This document shows, piece after piece, positions 30,635-56,023 of a stretch of 64,000 nucleotides of DNA. The stretch is taken from the NCBI GenBank assembly GCA_035221665.1, contig CM069156.1, forward strand, positions 12,028,001 to 12,092,000, written 5' to 3'. The notes beneath the pieces were generated by a model. That model was not told the origin of the DNA and did not search any database. It worked only from the letters and a program-made list of their open reading frames with translations. Source of the DNA: Okamejei kenojei (lineage: Eukaryota). The position numbers and the translations under genes are program-made. Each line of letters opens with the position of its first letter. Positions within the stretch are counted from its first letter, which is position 1.

Positions 30635-30715
30635 TCAAAATCCAAACACTCCCCCAACTGTGGAGGCAATGACGACCCCCAGCACCACACAGCATATAAT
30701 GATCATAATCTTCTT
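30635..30715 (-). CDS. STX1A: Canonical syntaxin-1A terminal exon (transmembrane domain and stop)
   Basis: CTAAC branch-like motif, pyrimidine tract and CAG. Translates KKIMIIICCVVLGVVIASTVGGVFGF then TGA, matching the STX1A tail with the CC pair. Confidence 0.96.
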   Translation of the reverse strand, partial: KKIMIIICCVVLGVVIASTVGGVFGF

Positions 30716-31579
30716 CTGTAGCCCCCAAATCCAAGCAGCATGACAGGAAGAAGAGGAGAAAGTGTTAGTTCTGTAACTTTATTTACATTTAAATGATTCA
30801 GGGTCTTTACAGAATGGAAGATGAAGCAATTCCAAAACAGATTATAACCTTCCCTTTCAGTAAATGTTCTTATTGATATCTTCTTGTTGCAGGCTCTTCA
30901 TTTTAACAAACCATTAACATTTCAGAACCTACCTTGAAACATAAGTCCCTCACATTTCAAACATCTCGCGCACCACACATCTCTCGGTATAAATAGTACA
31001 CCACATATTCCATCACCACACTCCATCATATTAAGAAGCCATCCTCACATTAGACAACTGCTCACATTAGATGCAGACATACAACAACAATGCTCCCACT
31101 TCATATTATAAATCTCTCTTCTTAACAAGTACCTGACATTAAACACTCGCTCATGACATTATTTGTAGCTGGAAACAGCTGGGGAGGTAGAAAGTATGAT
31201 GTCTTCTTTCGACCTTTAATCCCAATGTAAAATGTTTACACATTATTGAATTTAGTTAATAAGTTTCTGACTGGCATCTTACCCTAATCTACTTTTTGCT
31301 GTCAAATTTGTATTTACAGTAATTGAAAAGCTTTGCAAAAGGAGCAGATTTTGGGAGAAAGACGAGAATTAAAAATACAATTTGGTTCAATTCTGAGTTG
31401 ATAATACAATACAATTTTAAGAGAGGGGTGTGATTGCAAGTGTGTGCACAAAGAGGTGTAAAGTGCATATCCGCATGTAAGAATGTTATTTATTGTCAAT
31501 TCACTTACCATCATCAGGCATTGAACTGCATAGGGACACATTTTAGATTCCCTGTTGAGATGTCTGTTAAGATCTAGAC

Positions 31580-31799
31580 CAGGGGTTCTCAACCAGGGGG
31601 GGATTTCAGGTTTTCAGGGGGGGAATTGGGACCACAAATTAGCAAACTCAAACTGTTAGAAATAAAGGATTTTCAGTATTATATGCATATTATTTGGAAT
31701 GCACTTTTTGAGGCAGACAATCTTGGAAAGGAGGGGGGGAATGACATTCTGACATATGTTGAAAGGGGTGCATGGGGCAAACAAGGTTGAGAACCACTG
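31580..31799. mobile_element. hAT/Charlie-type MITE
   Basis: TIRs CAGGGGTTCTCAACC / GGTTGAGAACCACTG and perfect 8-bp TSD ATCTAGAC (31572-31579, 31800-31807). Confidence 0.92.
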
Positions 31800-33294
31800 A
31801 TCTAGACTGTAATATAGACCTAAACTATCTTCTATTCCTTGTGGTTAATGGAATCATCAGCTTCTCCAACTTCTGACAGTCTGTTATAGCAGCTCAACTG
31901 CTTCCCATACAGTCTCTCACTCTTCACCTCACACACACCTTGTGAAAGGGTTGTAAAAGTTTTAACAGTAGAGCAGCCATAAAATCTACAATCATGCAAA
32001 ACAGCAAGCCACATCTTCAGAAATGGACGAAGAGAAAGTGAGGAATGTAATGCTGATACAAGAAGAACTGAGTAAAATCTAGAAAGGTACAAAACACCTG
32101 TAAAACAATGGCACTATCCACGTATTACATAGTGCTGTAGTTTTACAGCTGGATAATACTGTTCCAGTAACACATTCATTAGCAGTAGTGGAGAACGGGA
32201 AAGGGTCCATGCTGTAACACAATACATTTCTCCCATGGCAACAAGGCTCCTTTACTTTTGGGGAGAAATCGTATTACTTTTATTGCATTGTGTATTTATG
32301 TTTTTCCGTGGAGTCTATTATTATTTAGGCAGCTTCACTTTTTTTTTGGCTAAATAACAGCACTTCAGTAGTTTGTATCACAGTTGATAATTTCTTTGAG
32401 ATCAACGAATTATTGTATTTTTATTATTTTGCCTTTGTCATTATTTCCTTTACAAGAATTGTTGTCAGTGTTACATATGCCCATATATAATATGTGATAA
32501 AAGAAATGTTGACAATTATCATTTTCCTTTAGTATGGTGAAAAACAAGCCGATAGAATGGAACTATAATCTTCAATGAATGATTTTTTTTTTAAACTGGA
32601 AGGGCCAAGTGAAAGAATTGTGGAACAAAACTTGTTCAACAACCAGATATTACTACATCTGTTCAAGCCATTGGTTAAACTGCATTCAGAATATGATCCC
32701 AAATTTGGTCAGTACAATTTTGGTAAGAACTTAATAAATAGTGCATAACATTTCAGTGGAGTATGAGGCTTTAGTGGTGGTGAGACTAGAGAAAAAGTAA
32801 TACTTTTGCTACTCTATAAGATTCTAGGAAGTCTGATGGGCATTTTTTGATCCAAGAAGGTATCTTTCTTTATTATCTGTCCAGAAAATACAAATTTAAG
32901 ATTACTACCAAAAATAAGGAAAAGTTAGAATGTTTTTTTTTAATGCAGGGCCTATTGTGTTGACATTTGTCAGTGTCATTAAATTCGATCTATATTTTTT
33001 CCTAAAGAACTGTTCATGACTGCAAATTCATATATGGCAATGTCCATACTCGTTCCTGCATCTGCACATGAACATGGATCTGTGATTTATTTTCCTGCTC
33101 TTTAATTTTTTTTATTTTTATGGGTTTAATGGCTTGGATTTTCCCAAGAAGATGGCAAGAATTTCTCATTGTAACTTATGATACTCGTGCAAACATGAAA
33201 CTTTCAAAAGGAATGCCTGTGGATTAATTCACTGTGATGTTTGTAAAGTTTCTTGGGGAGTTGATCAAGTTGGGAGGTTTTTACCTGGCAAAGT

Positions 33295-33615
33295 ATATTA
33301 AATTATGAAAGGCATAGATAGATAGATTAGACAGTCAGAACTTTTTTTCCCATGAGGGAAATATCAAGTGCTAGATGGCATAGCTTTAAGGTAAGAGGGG
33401 CAACATTTAAAGATGTGTGGGGCAAGCTTTTACGCAGAGTGCCTGAAACCTCTGCTGATGGTCGTGGTGGTGTCAGAAACGATAGTGGCATTTAAGAGGC
33501 TTTTGACAAGGCACATGGATATGCAGGGACATAAGAGTTGGCCTTGGCATCATGTTCAGTATAGACATTGTCATCCGAAGGGGCTGTTCCCGTGCTGTAC
33601 TGTTCTATGTTCTAT
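33295..33615 (+). mobile_element. Degenerate CR1-like LINE 3' fragment
   Basis: Homologous to 38214-38573; ends GTGCTGTACTGTTCTATGTTCTAT. Confidence 0.7.
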
Positions 33616-34354
33616 TTTTTAGGGCCAATTTTCTTCAATATGTGCGTTGGGATAATTTGCATCAAATAACAGCATTTTTTTAAATGAGGACCCATGGATT
33701 GGTGTATATGTCCGATCTGTAGATATTTGCAATGGATCATCTTTACTATCATGTTACAGTAGGCTGTAACTTCCTGGTAGTGGAAGGCTGCCCTTCTTCA
33801 GCAATAACATAGGTGCTAACCATTCATTTATCTTTTGCTGATCCTTCAGTGTCAATATTTTGTATAGTCCCATCTTATTCTAAAAGGGAGAGATTCTACA
33901 CAGTGACGTGGTCATGTTATGCAATGGTGACATCTGATAGACTAGAACAAGCCCAATATACAAAACAGCTGAAAGAAAAATCTGTCAACCAGTAAAGCTA
34001 CATCTCAAGCTTTACCAGCTGTCAAGAACTCTGAATGTCACTGGCATTATAGGAACATCCAAAAACAATTAAAAATGAATAAAGCAACATGTTGTATAAA
34101 TAAATTAATAATTAATAATTAAAAAAGCATTTAAAATAATTAAAAAATATTAGAGCAAACTTATGCATCCAATCGAATGTGAACTACCTTGCTCTTCCCT
34201 CTCATGGTCGTTCCTCTCTACTCAGGTGAAAGGGGCCTGATGCAGGTTCAGTGAAGAAGTTTCCCAACACAACTACTGGGGACTTCTGCAAGTTCATGGA
34301 TCACCACCAGATTCCATAAGGAACACTTGGGAAACTGTTGGCAGAACTCACTTA

Positions 34355-35038
34355 CAATCCCGTTTACATCAACGGGACGATGGTGGAAAAGGTCAAGAAC
34401 TTCAAATTCCTGGGCGTGCACATTTCCGAAGATCTTTCCTGGTCCCAGCACGCTGATGCAATTATAAAGAAACCACATCAGCACCTCTACTTCCTGAGAA
34501 GACTACAGAGAGTCGGTATGTTAAAGAGGACTCTCTTGAACGTCTACAGGTGCACAGTAGAAAGCATGCTGACTGGTTGCATCGTGGCTTGGTTCGGCAA
34601 CTTAAGCGTCTAGGAGCAGAAAGGGATACAGAAAGTTGTAACCACTGCCCAGTCCATCAGCGGCTCTGACCTCCCCACCATCGAAGGGATCTATCGTAGT
34701 TGCTGCCTCACCAAGGCAGCCAACATCATCAAGGACCCACACCATCCTGGCCACGCACTCATCTCTCCGCTACCATCGGGCAGAAGGTACAGGAGCCTGA
34801 ATTCTGTTATATCCAGGTTCAGGAACAGCTCCTTCCCCACAGCCTTCAGGCTATTAAACTCGGCAACAAACAGACTCTGAACTGCAACAGTCTATTGCAC
34901 TTTATCTGCTTATTTATGTGTATATTGAACTAAACTGTTCTGTATTTTTGCTTACAATGTTTTGTGTTGCAGCAAACAAGAATTTCATTGTCCTATCTGG
35001 GACACATGACAATAAACTCTCTTGACTTGACTTGACTT
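34355..35038 (+). mobile_element. Rex1/Babar-type LINE 3' fragment
   Basis: PVYINGTMVEKVKNFKFLGVHISEDLSWS...LYFLRRL...YRCTVESMLTGCIVAWFG; AATAAA plus (CTTGA)n tail. Confidence 0.88.
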
Positions 35039-36649
35039 AGCAAGTTGGAGACTTCCACAATTGCCCGGGAATCTTCCAACCTCCAAAACCTAGGTGTAAA
35101 TTTCAGCAGTTCGGGGCTAAGCATAGTGTTTGCAACAGACCTGAGATCAAGTTATATTCTGAAGAGATACCTAAAATAGCCACCAGGGAATGCCCAAAAC
35201 CTATACTTCTATGGACATCAAGAGGTGTTTTACAAAGAGACCATCAGCTAAATTGGAAGCTCGTGGAATAGAAGAATTAGCAGTTTAAGATTTGACTGAG
35301 TGGCAGCAAACGGACAATAGAGTTAAGGGTGGATGTTCAAATTGGCAGTGTAATTAAGATTAATGTTGGGGTTGCAAAGATCAGTTGTACTTGGATGACA
35401 TGATAGAAAACAACATATTGTATCTGCCTGACATGGCAAAACCGGAAGCATTATAGACAGGAGCATTAATTTATAAGGAGCTAATGGATTAGGCAAATGC
35501 ACAAAACAGGACTGATGTGACAGAATACTTTCCAAATGGTGTTAAACCAGAAACAATGGAGATCCAAAGAGGGCTGGATAAAGTATCACAGAAAATAATA
35601 GGGCAAATATAATACTGGATTTTATATTGAGATTTTATAATATACTGGATTTTATATCGAGAAATAAAATGAAAAGAAATTGAGCAATTCTGCTACAAGT
35701 CATAATTGGACCATCTGTGCAGTCTGTGTGCTACAAGTTGGGAAGGATATTTTGGCCTTAGACAGGGTAAAGCAGATTTATCGCAATAATATCTTAATTC
35801 TGAAATTCAACTGAATCTTAAGGATTTCATAACTGAAATTATGCAAAGGCCGTATTTCATGCAATTTACAAGGTTAAAGGGTTATCTGACAAGATTTCAA
35901 GATAATAAAGGGAACATAAACCAGATAAAGAAACGATTTCCACTGATTTAAGAGTTTAAGATGAAATGGCAGTCTAAAAATTGAAGTGAGGAATGAACAC
36001 TTGTACTCATAAATTAGTCAGTCTGGAACTGTTAAACTCAGATTATGAGGTTGATAGATTTTTATTGGGAACTAGACCGTGCAGACCCGTTGGGAGGGGG
36101 ATTGGGGGTTTGGAGCGCTGGAGTGCCCCTCCCTCCCAGAGTGGCCCGACCTGCCTTGCAAGTGCATTGTGACGTCACTCAGATTTTTTTTTTCAAAATG
36201 GGTGAGTTTGAAGAAATCAGGCTGTTTTTAAAATGTCAACGATTAATAACCAGAAATGTAGATGGAAATGCGACGGGAAGATATTTATCTTCAATTATTA
36301 TCTTTAGATATTATTTATTAAATGTGAGTAGGATTTGTGAAAATGGGAAGGCTGTGGCCTAGCGTTTGGAAGATGATAGGAATTAACCAGATTGACACAT
36401 TCAGAGACACATCGTGGGCACAAACAAGACAAAGACTTTTAGTTATATAGAGATAACAATGGGAATAAGCAAACTTTGTTTTAGACAGTCCCTTAGGATT
36501 TTGGATGAGTTGCTTTCATTCTGGTTCTGAGGTGGCTGATAAGGCCAATGTAAGACCTACATTGGGCAAGTGTGGCTAGTGGGGTGGTCAGGTACGTGGG
36601 GTGTAAAGCAATGAGCTCCTTCTGCTCATTACGTTAACCTTCTGCATGA

Positions 36650-36880
36650 TTTGTTTAGTTTAGGGACACAGGATGGAAACAGACCCTTTGGCCTGCTGAG
36701 TCCATGCTGACCAGTGATCACTCGTTCACACTAGTTTTATGTTATCCTTCTTTCTCATCCAAGTCCATACGGTTAAAGGGAGAACGTGTAAACTCCACAC
36801 TGACAGAACCCAAGGTTGGGATCGAACCCAGGTCTCTGGTGCTGTGAGGCAGCATATCTACCAGGTGCACCACTGTGCAG
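36650..36880 (-). mobile_element. tRNA-derived SINE, internally deleted
   Basis: GGGATCGAACCC is the reverse B-box; TTTAGTTTAG is the reverse tail. Confidence 0.75.
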
Positions 36881-37686
36881 CCCGAAACATGCGGCCGAAA
36901 TTCTCAGCATCCTTCCGAATGCTCCTTATCTACTTTGAGCTGCCGGGATGGGCTCAGAAATCTTACGTTACATTTTTTTTTCTCCAAAGGAGGTGGATAT
37001 ATTAAGTCACTGAATGGGCACAACAAGATCTGGGAACTAAATGGGTGAGTTCTATTCCAACATTAATTTAGTAAAATTTGCTTGGCCATTTGCAGTGAGA
37101 ATGACGACTAGTTTGAGTGAGATATTGACAAAGAGAAAAGAGGGAGTTGAGAGGGAGAAGAGTGGAAAGAAAGACTGAAAGACAGGATAGAAAAAAAAGG
37201 TAAAATAGCAAGATGGGAAAGAGAGAGGAAGGGAATGGAGAGTAATTGATTTTAAAAGTATTTATAAAAATAGAAAAATCGCTGCAGAACTTCACCTGAA
37301 TTCATCGTGAACTAATAAGTTTGTAAAATCATGGATCATACTCTGTTAAGGCAAGATGCAAACCAATAATGCTTCTTAAGATTATAAACATTGAAATTAA
37401 CCCAAAATGATAAATAAAAGAGTGGTGCTTGAATCCTGATGTTGCTCTTCAGCTTATGGAGAAGCCAAAGCAAGCAAGGTCCGCACTGAAGAGAAGTTAG
37501 ACCTGAATCATGCACTTGGGGCCTGTAAGCAGCCTTTCCAGGAAAATCCTAGGTGTTGGCAAAATGAAATGGAGGTGTCCAGGAATGATGAGTTGTCGTC
37601 TTTCCTTTTTACACAAGCATACATGGAACAACAGCCCAGCTTTAGTCTCAGTCAGGATAATTCGGTGGATCATGTGCTTTCGAGCA

Positions 37687-37764
37687 TTAACTGAGAGACA
37701 CAGCCAAAGCAATGATGATAATCAACAGTACTACTGCAATGCATATTCCTATACAGATCATTTT
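37687..37764 (-). CDS. STX1A: Alternative terminal exon encoding a second tail-anchor transmembrane domain (syntaxin-2B-like)
   Basis: Strong acceptor TTGTTTTCTTCCCTTCCCACAG. Phase-0 frame KMICIGICIAVVLLIIIIALAVSLS then TAA, a hydrophobic C-terminal anchor of the expected length. Confidence 0.85.
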   Translation of the reverse strand, partial: KMICIGICIAVVLLIIIIALAVSLS

Positions 37765-38213
37765 CTGTGGGAAGGGAAGAAAACAATTTGGTGAGACTCA
37801 GCATGCAAATACGCACATCACAAAGAAACCACAGTAGCAAATAAAACATTCAAAATGTCTTGCAAATTTCTGGCTGACAACTGGGCATATGTTACACACT
37901 GGAATAATACATTCAAAGACATGACAGGACACCAAACATGTCCTCAAATATCTATGGCTCAAGGTTGGTTAATGTTGGATGGCCAATTGAATAATGAGAT
38001 AAAACCATGGCAGTACCTGTGATGGGACTGTGGCAGTGTGTTCAGGGCACTGTAATCCCCACAGAGCACCTCAGACATTTCTCCAATAAAGAACCTCCAG
38101 AATGAGGTTTTACGACGTTTACTTTCAGCATTAAGATTCAGACTGCTACTAGAGCGCTTGGGTGTCAAGTTAGGGAAAGTCGCTTTTAGTTCGGATGGAG
38201 TCCCATCTTGCTA

Positions 38214-38573
38214 CTTTATAGAGATGTGTAAGATCATGAGAGGAATAGATCGGGTAAATGCACAGAGTCTCTTGCCCAGAGAAGGTGAATTGAGGACCAG
38301 GGGACATAGGTTTAAGATGAAGGGGAAAAGATTTAATAGGAATCTGAGGGGTAACTTTTTCACACAAAGGGTGGTGGAAGTATGGAACAAGCTGACAGAG
38401 GAGGGAGTTGAGGCAGGGACTATCCCAACATTTAAGAAACAGTTAGACAGGGACATGGATATGACAGGTTTGGAGGGATATGGACCAAATGCTGTCAGGT
38501 AGGACTAGTGTAGCTGGGGCAAGTTGAGCCGAAGAGCCTGTTTCCACACTGTATCAGTCTATGATTCTATGAC
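38214..38573 (+). mobile_element. CR1-like LINE 3' fragment
   Basis: KIMRGIDRVN...RTRGHRFK...FFTQRVVEVWNKL; ctatgattctatgact tail. Confidence 0.88.
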
Positions 38574-39705
38574 TCAGTGACCAGTTGCAGACAGGCATCA
38601 CACAAGACTTCAGGGCTTTCATTACAAGCACGAGATCTGCTTCTCACAGATCTACACCCAGCACCAATGGTTTGCCCAGACTATACAAGTGGGTGGCAGA
38701 GCCAACACAGCAGAACATGCATGCTGCCCCCATGCTACTCTCTGCCAGGGCATTGAGGTGACAATCAGTTTTTCCGTTCAGCACATGGTCCATTTTAAGG
38801 CTCGGTTTGTCATAAATAGGCACAGCATCAAATCAAAAACACATCTTAACACACAGCAGCCAAACTCTCAACACAGCATTTGGAAGAAGCATGGAATTCA
38901 AGCTGCAATCATCAAGCCTTAGAATATCTGCAATTCAACAATAGTATGGAGATTGTGTCAAAATGGACAAAAATAAACCAGTAGTAGAGGACAATGCACC
39001 TGTAACTTGCTTTGTGTATCTGTGCAGAACTGCTTAGCTGTTAGATTGTCAGGTTGAAATGTTGCCAGCATACAAGTCCAATGCTGGCGGTCAGTGCAGA
39101 AGTCACTGATAGGATGTCGGATTTGGAGGAAGTGGGCTGTTGACTTGCTAACATTATGGCATCGTCTAGGTAGTCCCATTTAAAAGGCAAAGCTTCCTCA
39201 GACATGATCTATCAGTCAGTTGCTTCTGTTTACGTTATGTGGTGTGACAATATTGGCAACTGGTGCTATATGCCTGCAACTATTCTCTCCCAGAGGGAAA
39301 AAGGACTTGTTGTGATTACATAACTGCCAAATCCAGGTTTCAACCATCATTTTAGATGCACTAATGTTTTTCTATTTAGTTTTAATGAGCATATATTCTC
39401 CTTTTTCAGAATTTTTGTGCATTTCTTTTCAGCAACTATTTTTACCTGGTTTCGCTTGGAATTATATTTTAATCACAATTTACCCAGTAATACTTCTCCC
39501 TAAATGTTTTTAGAAAGCTTTATAATTACCCTTACTTTTCCTGGAATAAAGAGGAATTAAAGATGTTCAAACATCTCCTGGACTATTTTTCCATCATCAC
39601 TATCCCCTTTATATATTTAAAATAATTGCAAGTCATGTTAAACATGCCTTTCTGACCTGCGTAGTATTACCGCATAATTAGGAAAATTCACTGTTTGCCG
39701 TTCTA

Positions 39706-40925: not shown

Positions 40926-43448
40926 AGTCTTTATATTCACACCCTATACCATCAAGGTTGCAATGATGGGAAATAGTAATTTCTCACTGTGTCCTACTAT
41001 ATCATAGAGACTAATTCTGACATAGTTGTAAAAATTAACCAAAAGTTTCTCTGCTTATTTTCATCAGCCCAATTGGGTGAATTTCTCCAAACCAACTTAA
41101 AAATAGTAGATTTAATTTGAGAGAACACCTATCACCAATTTCCACCCACAAAACCACACCTTACCCCTACACACAAACATGCAAGCAGAGCTGATTAGCA
41201 GAAGTGCAGTGATTATGTTAGTTAAGGATGGCACTTCAATTTATGCTCATAGAAACCTAATTTTTTTTCATTTTTAATAGATCAAAATTTTAATTAAACT
41301 ACCTATGAAGCTATCAGCCGCACACTGATGAAATGATTCAGTCAAGGTTATAAAAGATATGTTTATTGACTGTATCAGATTACCAGAGATTGAAGAGTGG
41401 ACTCATATTAAACATCTCTATTCTGATGATAAATCCATTTTAAATTGTATTAATAAAAATGCCCTAAAGTTATTTCTTGGTGTAGGTGATGAAAAAAAGA
41501 TAAAAGTTCTGTTCTACTGCCCAACTGACCTTCATTGAAGATTTTAATTTAAACAGGTTCAGGTTTGCACAATGAACCACCAAAATTAAACTTTGGGCAT
41601 GGTTGCCTGATTGCCCAACCCAAACTGATCAAATTTGGTTTTTAACCTAAAACAGGCTGCAGCTTATGAATTGTATTTGCTTATTTTGAATTGTGAATTA
41701 ACAAGCTTGCATGTTTTTAGTAACAGAAGGCAGAACACTGGAAGAACTCAGTGGGTCAAGCAACGTCTGTAGATGCAAGTGGGTAAGTAAATATCTCGGA
41801 TGGGATTCTACATCAAATCCAGACCTCTTTGTGTTCTGTTTATCGATCCAGATTCCAGCATCTGCCGTCTCCTTTGTCCTCTTCTAACATTTCTTTATGT
41901 TTCAAACCCATTCCCCATATGACAATTAATTAATCAATTAATTAATTAATGATTAGACTCAACAACATTCTTACCATTCAGTGACATTTGGTGCTCACAC
42001 CTATCAATAGAGCTTATTTCGATTTGAAGTACATGTATCCTTGGTTGCTTGCTTTAGAATAAATGGCAATAATGCTACTGTAACAGACGTATGTGAATCA
42101 GAGTGATTAAATTATAATAAATACACACTACGGATTGCGTTGGAATAGATGAAAATATGATAAATTAGTGGCATTAATTGGATTGTATGAAAGCCAATTA
42201 AGTGAGGACAAAACTGAGGTAGATTTCGCAAAGTGTAATCTTTAGCTTGATTGGCTCCAGATAGGTTGGGCTGGAATTAATATCAAGTAGCAGAATAATG
42301 AGTTGAGATTGATTTGAGGTAGATTATAGTGGACGGATTTTAATAGAAATGATTCAATTATACTGACTGCTTCTGCCCACATCTGCAGAATGAATATTTC
42401 TTATCCGTTGACTGTAAAACTTCAAAAATGGCCCAGACTAAGTGACCTAGTCCAAAACCAAACATAATTAAGCAGATTTTAAAATAAACCAGAGCTAATG
42501 CAGGAAGTTAAAAAAATAATAATGCTGGTACTACGAGGAAGCTTTATCGAGGCACAAGTGAGATATGTGGGTTGTTTGTTGTTGGATGGAGACCTTGCCT
42601 TACACGAGGCCTTGACAACTGGTGAAGATGGGTGATACATACAGTGGCCAAGAAAGTGGAAAATAAAATAGAAGTTGACAGCTGTGTTGTGCTGACCTGT
42701 TATATACCGTTGGGCAAATAACATTGGATTGATTTTATTCAAAATGATTAAATTTAGATAGATTATAAGAGAGTGAATTATATCAGGATAGGTTTATTTA
42801 TAAGACACTGCAGTGGTATTGATTTGACAAGGACATATTGAATTCCCCGATGGGAGGGATACAATAAATAAATACTCCTGGACAAATTGCACCATCTGAG
42901 ATTAGATTCTACTCACTGATATATATTGGAGATAGATTTAAACAGGCAATGCATCATTTATGCATGATGGGTGTCAGGGGTTATGGGGAAAAGGCAGGAG
43001 AATGGGGTTAGGAGAGATAGATCAGTCATGATTGAATGGCAGAGTAGACTTGATGGGCCGAATGGCCTAATTCTGCTCCTATCACTAATGACCTTATGAT
43101 TTATTTGAATATTAAATATATTGCAGCAGAATAAGTTGAATTATGGAATTTGTACAGGGAATAAATTGCACTTAATTAGATGCTGTTAGTATTAGCAAAG
43201 TCTCAAGATAGATGACAAGGGGAAAATAATGGTCGATTTGTTTCTCCTCTGTTCTTCACCATGTCATTGAATGATTGTTAACTCACTGTATGTAAGTCCT
43301 GCCTCAAAATTCTTCCAATCCCTCTGTAAATGGAGCTGGCAAAATGTCATATTACATTAGCTTGTGTGTGACAGATGGTGTATTGGCTGCTTTTGTGATC
43401 AGAGGTATGAATGAAAATGGCCTCTCCAGGCAATGGGCATGAAAGACC

Positions 43449-43663
43449 GTGTGGGAAAGAACTGCGGATGTTAGTTTAAATCGAAGGTAGACACAAAATG
43501 CTGGAGTACCTCAGCGGGACAGGCAGCATCTCTGGAGAGAAGGAATGGGTGACGTTTTGGGTCGAGATCAGTCTGAAGAAGGGTCTCGACCCGAAACGTC
43601 ACCCATTCCTTTTCTCCAGAGACGTTCCCTGTCCCGCTGAGCAACTCCAGCATTTTGTGTCTA
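43449..43663. mobile_element. Penelope pLTR-derived fold-back element with intact hammerhead core
   Basis: ~80-bp inverted arms, CTGAAGA-AGGGTCTCGACCC-GAAAC-GTC at 43573-43600, perfect 13-bp TSD GGCATGAAAGACC. Confidence 0.85.
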
Positions 43664-43959
43664 GGCATGAAAGACCTACTGAATGTAGTAAATGTCAATA
43701 CTAAGAGGTGCACGCATCTCTCCCAGGGTCCCACACCAAAAATGTTGCCCAACTTCTCTTTTACATACATCACAGAATTGGCTAAAGCCTGTGTTCTCTG
43801 CATCACACACCACTCATCAAAAACTATGCCTCGGAGTGTGTTACTGTGCAATGTTGTGAATAGATGAACATATTCACAAAGGTAAGTTTACATCATCGCC
43901 CAAATTTCATGTATCTATTTGAGATGTCAGATCACTTTCTTCACTTAGAGGGAGTACAG

Positions 43960-44483
43960 GGAAGGTTCTTGCCATAGAGGGAGTACAGAGAAAGTTCACC
44001 AGACTGATTCCTGGGATGGCAGGACTTCCATATGAAGAAAGACTGGATAGACTCGGCTTGTACTCGCTGGAATTTAGGAGATTGAGGGGGGATCTAATAG
44101 AAACGTACAAAATTCTTAAGGGGTTGGACAGGCTAGATGCAGGAAGATTGTTCCCGATGTTGGGGAACTCCAGAACAAGGGGTCACAGTTTAAGGATAAG
44201 GGGGAAGTCTTTTAGGACCGAGATGAGAAGATCATTTTTCACAAAGAGAGTGGTGAGTCTGTGGAATTCTCTGCCACAGAAGATAGTTGAGGCCAGTTCA
44301 TTGGCTATATTTAAGAGGGAGTTAGATGTGGCCATTGTGGCTAAAGGGATCAGGGGGTATGGAGAGAAGGCAGGTACAGGATACTGAGTTGGATGATCAG
44401 CCATGATCATATTGAATGGCGGCGCAGGCTCGAAGGGCTGAATGGCCTACTCCTGCACCTATTTTCTATGATTCTATGATTCT
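43960..44483 (+). mobile_element. CR1/HER1-like LINE 3' fragment (young; near-identical to 5004-5392)
   Basis: ORF 44016-44387 YEERLDRLGLYSLEFRRLRGDLIETYKIL...; 3' UTR and (CTATGATT)n tail. Confidence 0.93.
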
Positions 44484-45165
44484 TACTTTTTACTTCTACT
44501 TTCATCAAGAAGATGTTCTGCTTTTCAGAATGTGGGGCAAATAATCATTGCTGAACCATAGTTTCACCCAGGCAAACAACAGCAATGAGATGGGGAAAGA
44601 GATTGCAAGATTTATAGTGTACATCATGGTCTAAGTTTAAATCCAGGTTATAGAGAGGTATATGCAGCACGGGATCGCATGCTCCTGGACGTTATTTTTA
44701 ACGTGCCTCTAGAATATCTTGTTTCTGATTTATAAATGTTTGAGTTACACCTTTTAAATACGTGAAAAACTGTGCAGCAACATAATGCAATGTGTGCACT
44801 TCTGAACTGTCGAAATTTCCTGAGGTGAAGATAGCAGTTACATTTCTGTGAAAGACTCACTGTCCCAGAGCCAATTATAATATGTGAAGAGTATGGCCCT
44901 TATAATTGTTATCACTGACAAGTCATAAAGCCAGTTGTGTGTGCAGAATATATAACCCTCACAAATTTTATTACAGCATGGGGCCCCCTCGGTGGGAGGG
45001 AAGTCGACCAACTGATGGAGTGACAATTATAGACACGCACGTGCACAATGAGATGAATTCAGGGTTGCGAAACATTTTTTTTTGTACGATCTCTTGTGAT
45101 GGAATTGGGGACGTATAGTGAGATGATCCACAACGCATGCAGGCTTGTTGACGTGCACTACTCAC

Positions 45166-45276
45166 CCGTCGCGCTTTACTCTGGTACTTAACCGCCTTTT
45201 TTGTGTCAGACACTGCCCTCTCTACGTAGTCAACTGAGTGCTCGACGTTGTATTCGATCCTGTCTATCATCTCCCC
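45166..45276 (-). CDS. STX1A: Canonical syntaxin-1 exon 9b: C-terminal half of SNARE motif and juxtamembrane basic stretch
   Basis: 111 nt, CAG acceptor, GTGAGT donor. Translates [37 protein letters not shown], essentially the vertebrate syntaxin-1 sequence. Confidence 0.97.
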
Positions 45277-45352
45277 CTGGGCATCGAGGAAAGAGCAGAG
45301 ACGCATGAAAGTAACAGAGGTGCTTCAGCAGCCATTCTCCCCAGTCACTTAC

Positions 45353-45463
45353 CCGCCGGCTTGTACTCTTAAAATTAACAGCTTTTTTTGTGTTTTCTTT
45401 TGCGTCACCTATGTAATCCGTTGCATTAACAACGTTCCTCTCAATGCTGTTGACCACATCACC
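45353..45463 (-). CDS. STX1A: Alternative (putatively mutually exclusive) exon 9a: syntaxin-2-like C-terminal half of the SNARE motif
   Basis: 111 nt, phase 0/0, TTCTTCTTCTGTTTCAG acceptor, GTAAGT donor, open frame [37 protein letters not shown]. Same length as and homologous to the adjacent canonical exon. Confidence 0.88.
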
Positions 45464-45997
45464 CTGAAACAGAAGAAGAAAGATTCACTCTTCCCGAAAA
45501 GCCCCTGGTATCCCAAGGAATTATATCACAAGCATTATATCTGGCAGCATTGTCCTTGAAGGGTGGGGGGCAATGTGAAGCCTCAAAGAGTCCCCACACT
45601 GCCACCCTGCACACTTTTCTGTTGCAAAGAGCCATTCCTCTATTCATGTGGGAACCACTAATGGTTTATTTGAATAGCAACACAGCATAAAAGCCTTACC
45701 CCACAATAACATAATGAGGCACTTATTCTCCCAAGGACTTGCTCATCAGAACATCCAATAACTCCCACATAGAAACCTGATGAAATCAACCAAGGTATGG
45801 GTTGGTTTTGAGTCTCTAGATAATCTTTTTGTTTACCAACTGGAGCATTTTCAGATTGTCATCTTTGCTGTTCAGGGAATTTAAACTGGAATGAATTTCC
45901 TTTGGGAATTTCACTGGAGTCAAAGGTGCAGCATATCTTACATTGCTGCACCTTTGACTTTCTTTAGGCACTTTACCACGTTTCAAGAGTCCAATAT

Positions 45998-46053
45998 CAT
46001 GCGTGTGGTTGGAAGTACATGCAATCATGCAAAGCTGCACTGTTACTGCATGC
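45998..46053 (-). promoter_or_regulatory. Cluster of four (T)GCATG Rbfox-type intronic splicing motifs upstream of exon 9a
   Basis: Plus-strand catgc(a) at 45998, 46018, 46026 and 46049, giving two TGCATG and two GCATG on the transcribed strand within 56 nt. Confidence 0.6.
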
Positions 46054-47622
46054 GACAGAATGTGTTACCTGCAGGACTCCACCGTCCAGTCCAGGGTATT
46101 AGCAGCAGGAGAAAACAGAGGCTGTTACCAGCAATAGGAAGAATAGACTCGCAGTCAGAGCCTCAAGGTGAATTGTGAATTAATGGAACAGAGCTCTTTG
46201 CAACTCTTATTAGATCTTTGCTCTTCTTGACTTTGATATCATTTTCCATACATCACAGTCCCTTCGATCCACACAACAGATCCCTTGTTTCTAACCTTTG
46301 GACAGAAGGTTGCAGAGATGGGGGCAGAAAGCGAGGGAAGGGAAGGAAGGGGGAGTGACACTTGGAGTGAGAAGTCTTTGCAAGTGGTTAGATGGTGTGA
46401 TCAACGAAAATAAGTGGGATGGTAGGGTCTGGCAGTGCAATGACAGAGGCAGCTCCAGGAATGTCTTGGGGGCACTTTCAGAAGCAAAGATTCTGCCTGG
46501 GAATCAGCTGACCTGCCCTTGGCTCTGTGGTAGCACGTTTGGTTCTGAGTGAGGCATTATAGAGCTTCACCTATCCTCCGCCAAGGATCCTCTCAAACAA
46601 TAAACAGGAAGTTGATTGGCAACCTTCACAAAGTGGACAGTGCCTCAAATCAGAGACGAGGTGTGTAAAAGAAGAAGAGGGCTGGGAATGGGAAGAAGCA
46701 CAGATACATGGTACTGCTCATTTTAAATAGCAGAATAAGGTGCATCCTTCCATTGTCCTTATTTTAGGAGACGGAGAGATTACTGCACCACTGTATCTCT
46801 TGTTTGCAGGATTGATGGTGAGACCATGATGGAAGGACTAATTCACTTCCCAGTCTAGTGTGGTGGATCAGTGGTTAGCTGGGTTGGATCACTGAAAATC
46901 AAGTGTACAATACCTCACATGACCAACGAGGCAAACTCCCTTTCCAGTGCATATAAAGTTATGCAGTCCAGGTTCCCTCAAGCCTTGTCTTCTTGGGGTA
47001 CTGGTAAAAGGAGACTACTTAGACTTGCCATTGGCAACTTTGGAGGGCATTAGTTGTTATCAGAGAAACCCAGAAGGAAGGTACAGCGTAGTCTAAAATC
47101 TAAACATATGGTCAATGGGTTCCACATCAGTAGATTACATTTAAGGTTGGCTCTCCGTGTATTTTTGAATGTTACGTGCATCAAGGAATATAGGCTTGGA
47201 TAGGAGAGTGAACAGTCTTGGATAGGAGAGTGGACAGTCATATCCTATTGACAATTGGCACAGACTCACAGTACTCTATGGCCTACTCTTGCTTTAAGGT
47301 GTTGCTCTTGGTCTTATGCTCTTGCTTTATAGGTTATGCTCTTAAACTGAGATTATGTTTTTCCCTGCAGCACGCAGAATGCTTGAACACTAGTCACTGA
47401 GCAGAGACTTCAAAAACTGAAGTGATAATTCTTCAACACACAATTCTTGTCAAATCAAAGTTGTTAAGGCAGTTAAAATCAGCAATAACATGGAACCATA
47501 AAGTTTTGTTTTACACTCAATCCACGATGACAGAGTAAGATGGACCTTTTCTGTTTAGTAACTGGTAGTTCCTGTCACACAGATTCAAAATGAGGTCTTT
47601 CTCTGTTTGATCGACATCTTAC

Positions 47623-47760
47623 CTGGCTTTCCACCAGCATTGCCATGTCCATGAACATATCGTGCAGCTCGCGAATACAGTTCTCCAGTTTGATGATCTC
47701 ATGATGTCGCGTTTCAATCTCATTTAGAGCCTGCTTCGTGATGTTAGAATCCATTATGAT
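47623..47760 (-). CDS. STX1A: Syntaxin-1A exon encoding N-terminal half of the SNARE motif up to the zero-layer Gln (human exon 8 equivalent)
   Basis: 138-nt phase-0 exon with pyrimidine tract+TAG and GTAAGA. Translates [46 protein letters not shown]. Confidence 0.96.
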
Positions 47761-48719
47761 CTAAGAGAAGAGAGAACCATGCAGAATCAGCTGACCAGCC
47801 GGGCATCACAGAACATATGTGGGTGTGACCAAATACTACAAATCCTCGAAGTTACTTTCAATTTGTAGTCTGAACAGTTTAGAAGCAGACTGTGACAAAA
47901 TCAGGGCCAAACCCCCCCCCCCCAAAACAGGTTTTTACCATTCCATCAGGACTTCCACATGTGGCATCACCCTGGTACGGCATGGTATTTTTAAATCAAT
48001 TGGCATCGGTTTAATTTTATATCGTCTTAGCTAAGTCTACATTCCAGGGTTAGACACTTTGTATTTTGCTCTGCAGTTCCTTGTATCTTCATCCTAGAGT
48101 TAAAAGACTGGAAATTCTCCATAAACTAGCAGTCCCGATGGGGTTAAAAAAAACCCCAAAGTGCTGGAGGAATGGTCTTGGAGCACCTATGGACGAAATG
48201 GACAGATGACATGTGAGTCCGGGACCCTTCTGATGTGTTTACTCTTAGTTTATCTTCAGGACTATATCTTTTCTCCTTACAAAGACTGCATCTCCATTCA
48301 CATGTTTAAGAACGAACTGCAGATGCTGGAGTAGAAATCGGTAGACAAAAATGCTGGAGAAATCTCCATTTTCTATACTACTAGGTTTTCTGATTCTGCC
48401 AGAAATACCCTACTATGCATTCCATCAAACGACAAAAGGTGAATCCTGTCAAATCCACTCATTACCGACAGTCTGGTTGGCTTAGCAACAATGTGGAAGG
48501 ATAGGCATTAAAATTTCACTGGCCAACCTGTAGCTCCTTGTTCCACAGCCCACCAGACATTTACTCACATCCTTGAGCAGCCAAAACTGTTACTGCAATA
48601 ATTTGTGTCTGGTTCAGATAATTGTGCCCCCAAGGATGTTGAAGCTGAGAGATTCGGTAATAATCAAGCACTTGAATATCAAGGAGTGGTGGCTTTATTG
48701 GAAACGACAACTGCAAGGC

Positions 48720-55949: not shown

Positions 55950-56023
55950 CCCTGATGTGAAGATAGCAGGATTCCCACTCTCCAGCATGTCTTCCAGCTC
56001 CTCATTTGTGGTCGTTCTTCCAG
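55950..56023 (-). CDS. STX1A: Syntaxin-1A internal coding exon (Habc-SNARE linker; equivalent to human exon 7)
   Basis: 74-nt exon, TAG acceptor and GTAAGT donor. Translates (T)[31 protein letters not shown] fits STX1A rather than STX1B (GKLAIFTDD) or STX2 (GKPSIFTSD). Length matches the recalled human exon. Confidence 0.95.

Follow-up and report, generated by a model that had tools for sequence, protein, structure and literature searches.

A four-exon alternative cassette in a skate gene assigned to syntaxin-1A

Introduction

The STX3 gene carries an alternative cassette that is already known, and fish STX1A isoforms are already present in RefSeq and in automatic annotations. As described in four papers (PMC8263458, PMC11476516, PMC9183232, PMC8373072), the 3A and 3B forms of STX3 part at the zero layer of the SNARE motif. 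A soluble form, STX3S, is made from exon 9A (PMC8263458), and the STX2 and STX3 events have been dated to Bilateria with the help of Daphnia (PMC8373072).

The functional weight of this segment has been measured in mouse neurons. An 8-fold higher rate of spontaneous release, and an RRP of 0.2 nC instead of 0.5 nC, followed when Q226-I255 of STX1A was swapped for the STX2 sequence, and the STX2 residues tested were D231N, R232N, Y235R, E238V, V248K and S249E (PMC10957171). Palmitoylation of C271/C272 and spontaneous release both depend on a basic residue at position 260, and neutral residues at this position lowered both (PMC9183232). A search of the literature outside subscription journals returned no report of a second, alternative exon 9 in the STX1A of fishes; the supplement of PMC8373072 contains 0 rows for STX1A, and PMC9741552 and PMC4417111 name no STX genes.

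Here we analyze a 64,000-nt stretch of the Okamejei kenojei genome, called the window throughout (contig C26:12028001-12092000; GenBank CM069156.1), that contains the 3′ half-motif and anchor exons of a gene assigned to STX1A.

Results

Anatomy of the locus

Upstream STX1A exons lie further along the same contig. The features of the window are, in window coordinates:

55950..56023, minus strand: exon 7 of STX1A, 74 nt, common to all forms (found by tblastn with a Narcine STX1A-like protein, ends read)
47623..47760, minus strand: exon 8, shared, ending in the zero-layer Gln; its donor is used in contigs
45353..45463, minus strand: exon 9a, 111 nt, A-type second SNARE half-motif and juxtamembrane stretch, residues 227-263; its acceptor is used in runs X2 and X4
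45277..45352, minus strand: 76-nt intron separating 9a from 9b, retained in contigs that hold 9a
45230..45232, minus strand: stop codon that ends the frame of 9a if the intron is retained, 64 nt ahead of the 9b donor
45166..45276, minus strand: exon 9b, 111 nt, canonical STX1 second SNARE half-motif with KARR; both ends are used in contigs
37687..37764, minus strand: coding part and stop of exon 10a, a 25-residue anchor without a Cys-Cys pair, joined to 9b in run X4
30635..30715, minus strand: coding part and stop of exon 10b, an anchor of the canonical STX1 kind that includes Cys271-Cys272; runs X2 and X6 join it to 9b

The initial annotation of this DNA described two intact exons of equal length and phase with canonical splice sites, downstream of an exon ending in the zero-layer Gln, and the window sequence bears this out. 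Exons 9a and 9b are each 111 nt long, in phase 0, bounded by AG and GT and open throughout, with translations exactly as given there, and the upstream exon is exon 8 (47760-47623). Recounting their shared residues also returned the same figure (16/37); they have 65/111 nt in common and are spaced 76 nt apart. The 9a donor is a perfect GTAAGT, and the 9a peptide aligns to residues 227-263 of syntaxin-1A in PDB 9ojz. A DNA search of its own genome matched the stretch a single time, and an exon-9 profile search of the window found exactly two copies (E = 1e-22 and 7.5e-20; next match E = 3.3). A third exon 9 or a third anchor exon in the window was ruled out by profile searches.

The switchable segment had been drawn as the 9a/9b pair; the pair is real, but its extent was understated, since a second exon pair, 10a/10b, encodes the membrane anchor. 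After the layer-0 exon the cassette runs 9a-9b-10a-10b, the order of human STX3 by the coordinates in the PMC8373072 supplement. The 10a anchor resembles the 10a anchors of fish STX1A as well as the second anchor of STX2. A tree of anchor exons (25 columns) resolved little of the branching and did not reject 10a and 10b as one clade (p = 0.061); an ant anchor exon groups with 10b in this tree (90/99). Anchors of at least three kinds occur in Hymenoptera rows. Contigs of runs X1, X2 and X4 cover much of the 7 kb that separate 10a from 10b (window 30716-37686), with intron 8 uncovered; the 3′ UTR of the 10a transcript may be very long and extend to the 10b region, the first AATAAA being at 36319. 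High-copy repeats occupy the 9b-10a intron at window 42500-44900 and 37713-38914, with depths of thousands to hundreds of thousands.

Splice joints in transcript-type contigs

Splice joints were read from contigs of four runs over 45040-47860 (2.8 kb), as an 18-kb joint table was made uninformative by repeats. The runs are RNA-type by our guess, none being on record as RNA; we treat them as cDNA because splice joints are present and intron 8 is uncovered. Exon 9a was seen in one study of one organism. The joints have short sides of 25-29 letters, below the advised 31, with canonical GT-AG ends, and depths are rough.

Both junctions that the initial annotation had named for checking, 47623->45463 and 47623->45276, are present in these contigs. 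Exon 8 is joined to 9b in 3/4 runs (X2, X4 and X6; depth 44.2, 7.6 and 3.2) and to 9a in 2/4 (X2 and X4; depth 11.3 and 8.9), the latter with no letter differences. Loose contig ends at the 9b donor continue into exon 10b in X2 and X6 and into exon 10a in X4, while run X11 held only an unspliced piece of 9b with intron. The contig that holds 9a (241 nt) reads 8-9a-intron-9b, with the 76-nt intron retained. The contigs of the four runs contained no 9a-10a, 9a-10b or 9a-9b joint. They speak for presence only, because X2 covers much of 30849-37501 behind 10a and yet has no joint into 10a.

Retention of the intron bears on one alternative, namely that 9a in cartilaginous fishes mainly acts as an off-switch or yields soluble syntaxin: the 76-nt intron, unsplicable, would stay in place, and the transcript would be degraded or translated without an anchor. 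We consider this unlikely, though it deserves serious weight. It fits the retention seen in both 9a-holding contigs at the depths just given. The decay rule asks for a stop 50-55 nt or more ahead of the last exon joint, and the stop at 64 nt before the 9b donor lies beyond this distance, so that the intron-retained 9a form is predicted from its sequence to be either a decay substrate or the source of an anchor-less protein. The soluble STX3S made from 9A is a known precedent (PMC8263458). Against it stand the perfect 9a donor, the fact that contigs drop branches, as X2 does behind 10a, and the expectation that a retained short intron is also an intermediate before removal of the 7.6-kb intron.

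The same intron is informative about how the two exons might exclude each other. Its adenines are at positions 3-18, 28, 29, 32, 41, 47, 69 and 75, with none at 48-68, and no AG occurs from position 30 to the acceptor; every adenine usable as a branch point is at most 47 nt from the 9a donor. The steric limit for the distance from donor to branch point is about 50 nt (PMC7969005). The likely barrier between 9a and 9b is a branch point lying too near the 9a donor, the adenines above being candidate branch points only. This exclusion may leak, because tandem 9a and 9b occur together in models of at least 16 species, and models of four sharks and of Hucho read from 9a into the intron.

Identity of the gene

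Exon 8 has syntaxin-1A as its best PDB match and is identical at 46/46 residues to the STX1A models of Narcine and of shark (RefSeq). All 11 matches to the GTF2I repeat lie on the window's own contig, 5.9-6.3 Mb away; GTF2I is a Williams-region neighbor of STX1A. A synteny test with BUD23 failed, the BUD23-like gene lying on another contig (C8:17196262-17203988), unlinked to STX1A here, and a synteny search with the BCL_N family was swamped by 150 repeat-like matches. Searches of this assembly turned up neither STX3 nor STX1B, so it is annotation and linkage, and not a full-gene tree, that support the STX1A label. On these two grounds the gene is the STX1A of a cartilaginous fish.

It is very improbable that the gene is instead STX3 or STX1B, or that the two exons stem from a more recent duplication or conversion within the gene. 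The first possibility gains from the absence of STX3 and STX1B among the genes found in this assembly and from the position of the BUD23-like gene, which in a turbot gene model is fused to STX1A; against it, exon 8 and exon 9b are identical to annotated STX1A, the teleost STX3 exons match the window's 9a at only 17-18/37 residues, and GTF2I is linked. It also counts against these possibilities that 9a shares only 73/111 nt with exon 9 of the skate's own STX2. That STX2 gene, on contig C25, shows a single exon 9 and a single anchor exon over the 30 kb examined (500 N within).

Several other syntaxin sequences of this genome were noted along the way. Exon 8 of the own STX2 has Cys in the LHDMF motif where the skate row and most others have Asp, and contig C2 holds a lone, degenerate STX3-like exon-6 fragment. 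On contig C13 an intronless Qa-type open frame of 306 aa (C13:40290343-40291155) ends in a short, hydrophobic, Cys-rich tail, and a partial second copy lies 10 kb off (C13:40300256-40300429). The intronless syntaxins on C13, C8 and C12 have Asn at 231, a mark of the A type, which hints that they came from an A form.

Distribution of exon 9a

We collected rows by hand from about 210 proteins, using 9a-containing queries (the best 120 of 2153 matches) and cluster look-ups. Exon 9a occurs in annotated STX1A-type proteins of at least 34 fish species: 7 cartilaginous fishes, the coelacanth, 4 sturgeons, the bowfin, an eel, 3 bony-tongues, 7 carps, a catfish, a salmonid and 8 percomorphs. The initial annotation had suggested looking for 9a in related fishes, and it is indeed kept in sharks, ray and coelacanth; its further statement that this lineage kept both exons is too narrow, 9a being present in at least 34 fish species. 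Among the matches listed, 0/43 amniote STX1A rows contain 9a, 40/43 contain 9b and 3/43 have another tail; the best 120 of 2153 matches included no STX1A rows of lamprey, chimaera, gar, lungfish or amphibian.

The window's 9a is identical to that of Narcine at 31/37 residues, of five sharks at 27-28/37, of Scyliorhinus at 24/37, of Latimeria at 23/37 and of ray-finned fishes at 13-21/37. Exon 9b is the same at 37/37 residues in shark, sturgeon, eel, bird, turtle and ruminant rows, as in most vertebrate rows. The only vertebrate rows seen with a 9b far from invariant are those of carps, where one STX1A copy has a diverged 9b (26-28/37); an apparent third exon-9 copy in carps was ruled out, being this diverged 9b.

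Gene models differ in what follows 9a. At least 14 other species have models joining 9a to 10a, including Narcine X1/X4 and Latimeria X1, and these argue against a mere off-switch. The models with 9a and 9b in tandem (many of them ab initio) are matched by others, in at least five species, that read from 9a into the intron; those of Carcharodon, Cetorhinus, Chiloscyllium punctatum and Stegostoma stop 3-6 residues into it, as an off-switch would have it. In percomorphs the layers +7/+8 and the juxtamembrane part of 9a are replaced by a Pro-, Cys- and Lys-rich stretch, and 9a is joined to 9b in 8/8 models seen, a possible change of role.

Constraint on exon 9a

The frame of 9a is open in all of the at least 34 species, with 37 codons in sharks, ray, coelacanth, sturgeon, bowfin and eel. 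The exon drifts fast while 9b is frozen, and percomorph 9a lacks layers +7/+8. At layers +1 to +8, 9a has V, I, V, A, I, A, T, A where 9b has I, I, V, S, V, A, T, A (5/8 identical, 3/8 conservative), and the differences sit on the outer face. The initial annotation had proposed an exchange of layers +1 to +8; the layers hardly change, and it is the outer surface that does. In a comparison of 10 lineages, conservation within 9a is 0.86 at the 8 layer positions and 0.66 at the other 20 (permutation p = 0.016), as expected of a translated helix.

This preference for the layers is something a pure decay exon would not need. It also weighs against another explanation, that 9a is a slowly decaying ancestral exon whose splicing is noise and which has no selected role in this lineage; we regard this as improbable. 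That explanation draws on the 6-14/37 sites at which 9a differs from its orthologues while 9b is invariant, on the absence of 9a from the 43 amniote rows among the matches listed, and on the drift of the C-terminal half in percomorphs. It is opposed, besides the layer constraint, by the preservation of frame, length, phase and splice sites across rays, sharks and coelacanth, and by an acceptor depth for 9a near that of the 8-9b joint in run X4 (8.9 vs 7.6, both rough).

On its outer surface 9a carries N231, S232, R235, V238, K248 and E249, which are five of the six STX2 residues tested in mouse neurons, with Ser at 232. It has Thr260, and exon 10a is without the Cys pair. Because Thr260 and the Cys-less 10a would pull against unclamping, no net change in spontaneous release can be predicted in either direction; by analogy with the mouse chimera, that the 9a form primes less well is the safer prediction.

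Evolutionary history

An exon-9 tree was built from 44 rows and 37 columns and has few well-supported forks. One branch (89/88) sets the B-type copies on one side, comprising the window's 9b, mammalian 9b, teleost STX3 9B and all invertebrate copies, and 17 STX1A 9a rows were placed among the STX2 rows. A single clade of all STX1A exon-9 copies was rejected (p-AU = 0.015). In this exon-level tree, of the kind suggested by the initial annotation, 9a does not group with all STX1A 9b as a recent duplicate. Together with the exon order of human STX3, this rejection supports the earlier proposal that the duplication predates the STX1/2/3 split, and it speaks, as do the 9a orthologues of coelacanth and ray-finned fishes, against a young duplication. 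The one tree result that leans toward a young duplication is the clade of chondrichthyan 9a and 9b alone, which was not rejected (p = 0.064). A grouping of STX1A 9a, STX2 and STX3 9A was not rejected (p = 0.25), nor was it recovered outright, teleost STX3 9A standing next to the B side.

The kinship of 9a with STX2 needs to be stated by segment. The human STX2 peptide quoted in the initial annotation agrees with the one printed in the PMC8373072 supplement. The match of 9a to it stands at 22/37 by eye, but 9b matches the same peptide at 25/37, and raw identity was discarded as proof of STX2 kinship: 16 of the 18 distinct STX2 exon-9 peptides are closer overall to 9b. The label "STX2-type" therefore holds for the SNARE half and fails for the whole exon. 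Over residues 227-255, 12/18 STX2 exons are closer to 9a, 4 tie and 2 are closer to 9b, whereas over residues 256-263 all 18/18 are closer to 9b. The TSRR of 9a had been read as STX2 chemistry, and this reading fails, as the skate's own STX2 keeps KARR.

In Syx1 of ants, a beetle, a moth, a mite and an oyster there are two exon-9 copies, the canonical copy first, both on the B side; the second copies may be separate duplications.

Discussion

The locus has four alternative exons, with joints 8-9a, 8-9b, 9b-10a and 9b-10b, retention of the 76-nt intron, and conservation across fishes. Our preferred reading, which we hold to be probable though by no means secure, is that an ancestral STX3-type cassette was kept in fish STX1A, with 9a and 9b exclusive by geometry and 9a-10a a real protein. 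A vertebrate gene that preceded the paralogue duplications would have held both exon types; STX2 would then have kept only A and amniote STX1A only B, with both retained by STX3 and fish STX1A. Exon 8 is spliced to 9a or 9b, and 9b to either anchor exon, 9a-9b splicing presumably being sterically excluded. By the gene models of other species, the skate would also make 9a-10a, a membrane-anchored STX1A with an STX2-like outer helix surface, and from the mouse chimeras this form would be expected to clamp spontaneous fusion less and to prime vesicles less well. Where the 9a donor is not carried on to an exon 10, the short intron would be kept, giving an anchor-less product and a predicted decay substrate.

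If an ancestral cassette was indeed kept, synaptic STX1 and general STX2 likely go back to a pair of splice forms made by a single gene, which parted among paralogues while fish STX1A and STX3 still hold both. Exon 9a would be a natural version of the chimera that changed priming and spontaneous release in mouse neurons, a directly testable prediction, and fish STX1A models and C-terminus-directed tools may involve up to four tails. More speculatively, and we rate it as rather doubtful, fishes from rays to teleosts would use splicing to adjust release at synapses: certain neurons or secretory cells would leave 9b-10b for 9a- or 10a-containing forms. The clamp on spontaneous release (the D231/R232 face) and the palmitoylation of the anchor (K260, C271/C272) would then be set separately, in a two-by-two arrangement that amniote STX1A would have lost when STX2 and STX3 took the A form.

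The cassette resembles that of STX3 in its splice point at layer 0, in having two adjacent 111-nt exons followed by two anchor exons (gap 119 nt in human STX3, 76 nt here), and in B forms that are STX1-like with Cys-Cys. It differs in its host gene, STX1A. The forms described for human STX3 are 9A-10A and 9B-10B, whereas a mixed 9b-10a joint is seen here, and in the weakly supported anchor tree 10a is closer to the second STX2 anchor than to STX3 10A. STX3B is retinal, and in cassettes of this type B use is neural and A use broad, while the STX1A forms here are known from sequence and from contigs of coded tissues.

The STX1A-2(Cter) chimera exchanges almost the same segment (Q226-I255), with identical surface positions; unlike natural 9a, which has T260 and is modelled with anchor 10a, it keeps K260 and the Cys-Cys anchor (PMC10957171). 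STX2 has a single A-type exon 9, and human STX2 has two alternative anchor exons. Over residues 227-255 the skate's own STX2 shares 22/29 with 9a, among them N231, V238, K248 and E249, and 15/29 with 9b; over 256-263 the likeness is reversed, 9a sharing only 3/8 and 9b 7/8. The alternative exon pair of SNAP-25 swaps another region than 9a/9b does. Exons 5a/5b of SNAP-25 (PMC2581893) and exons 8a/8b of C. elegans unc-64 (PMC4946901) are alike to the present pair as duplicated alternative exons in a neuronal t-SNARE; the unc-64 forms, of which A is mostly neuronal and B non-neuronal, differ in the anchor only.
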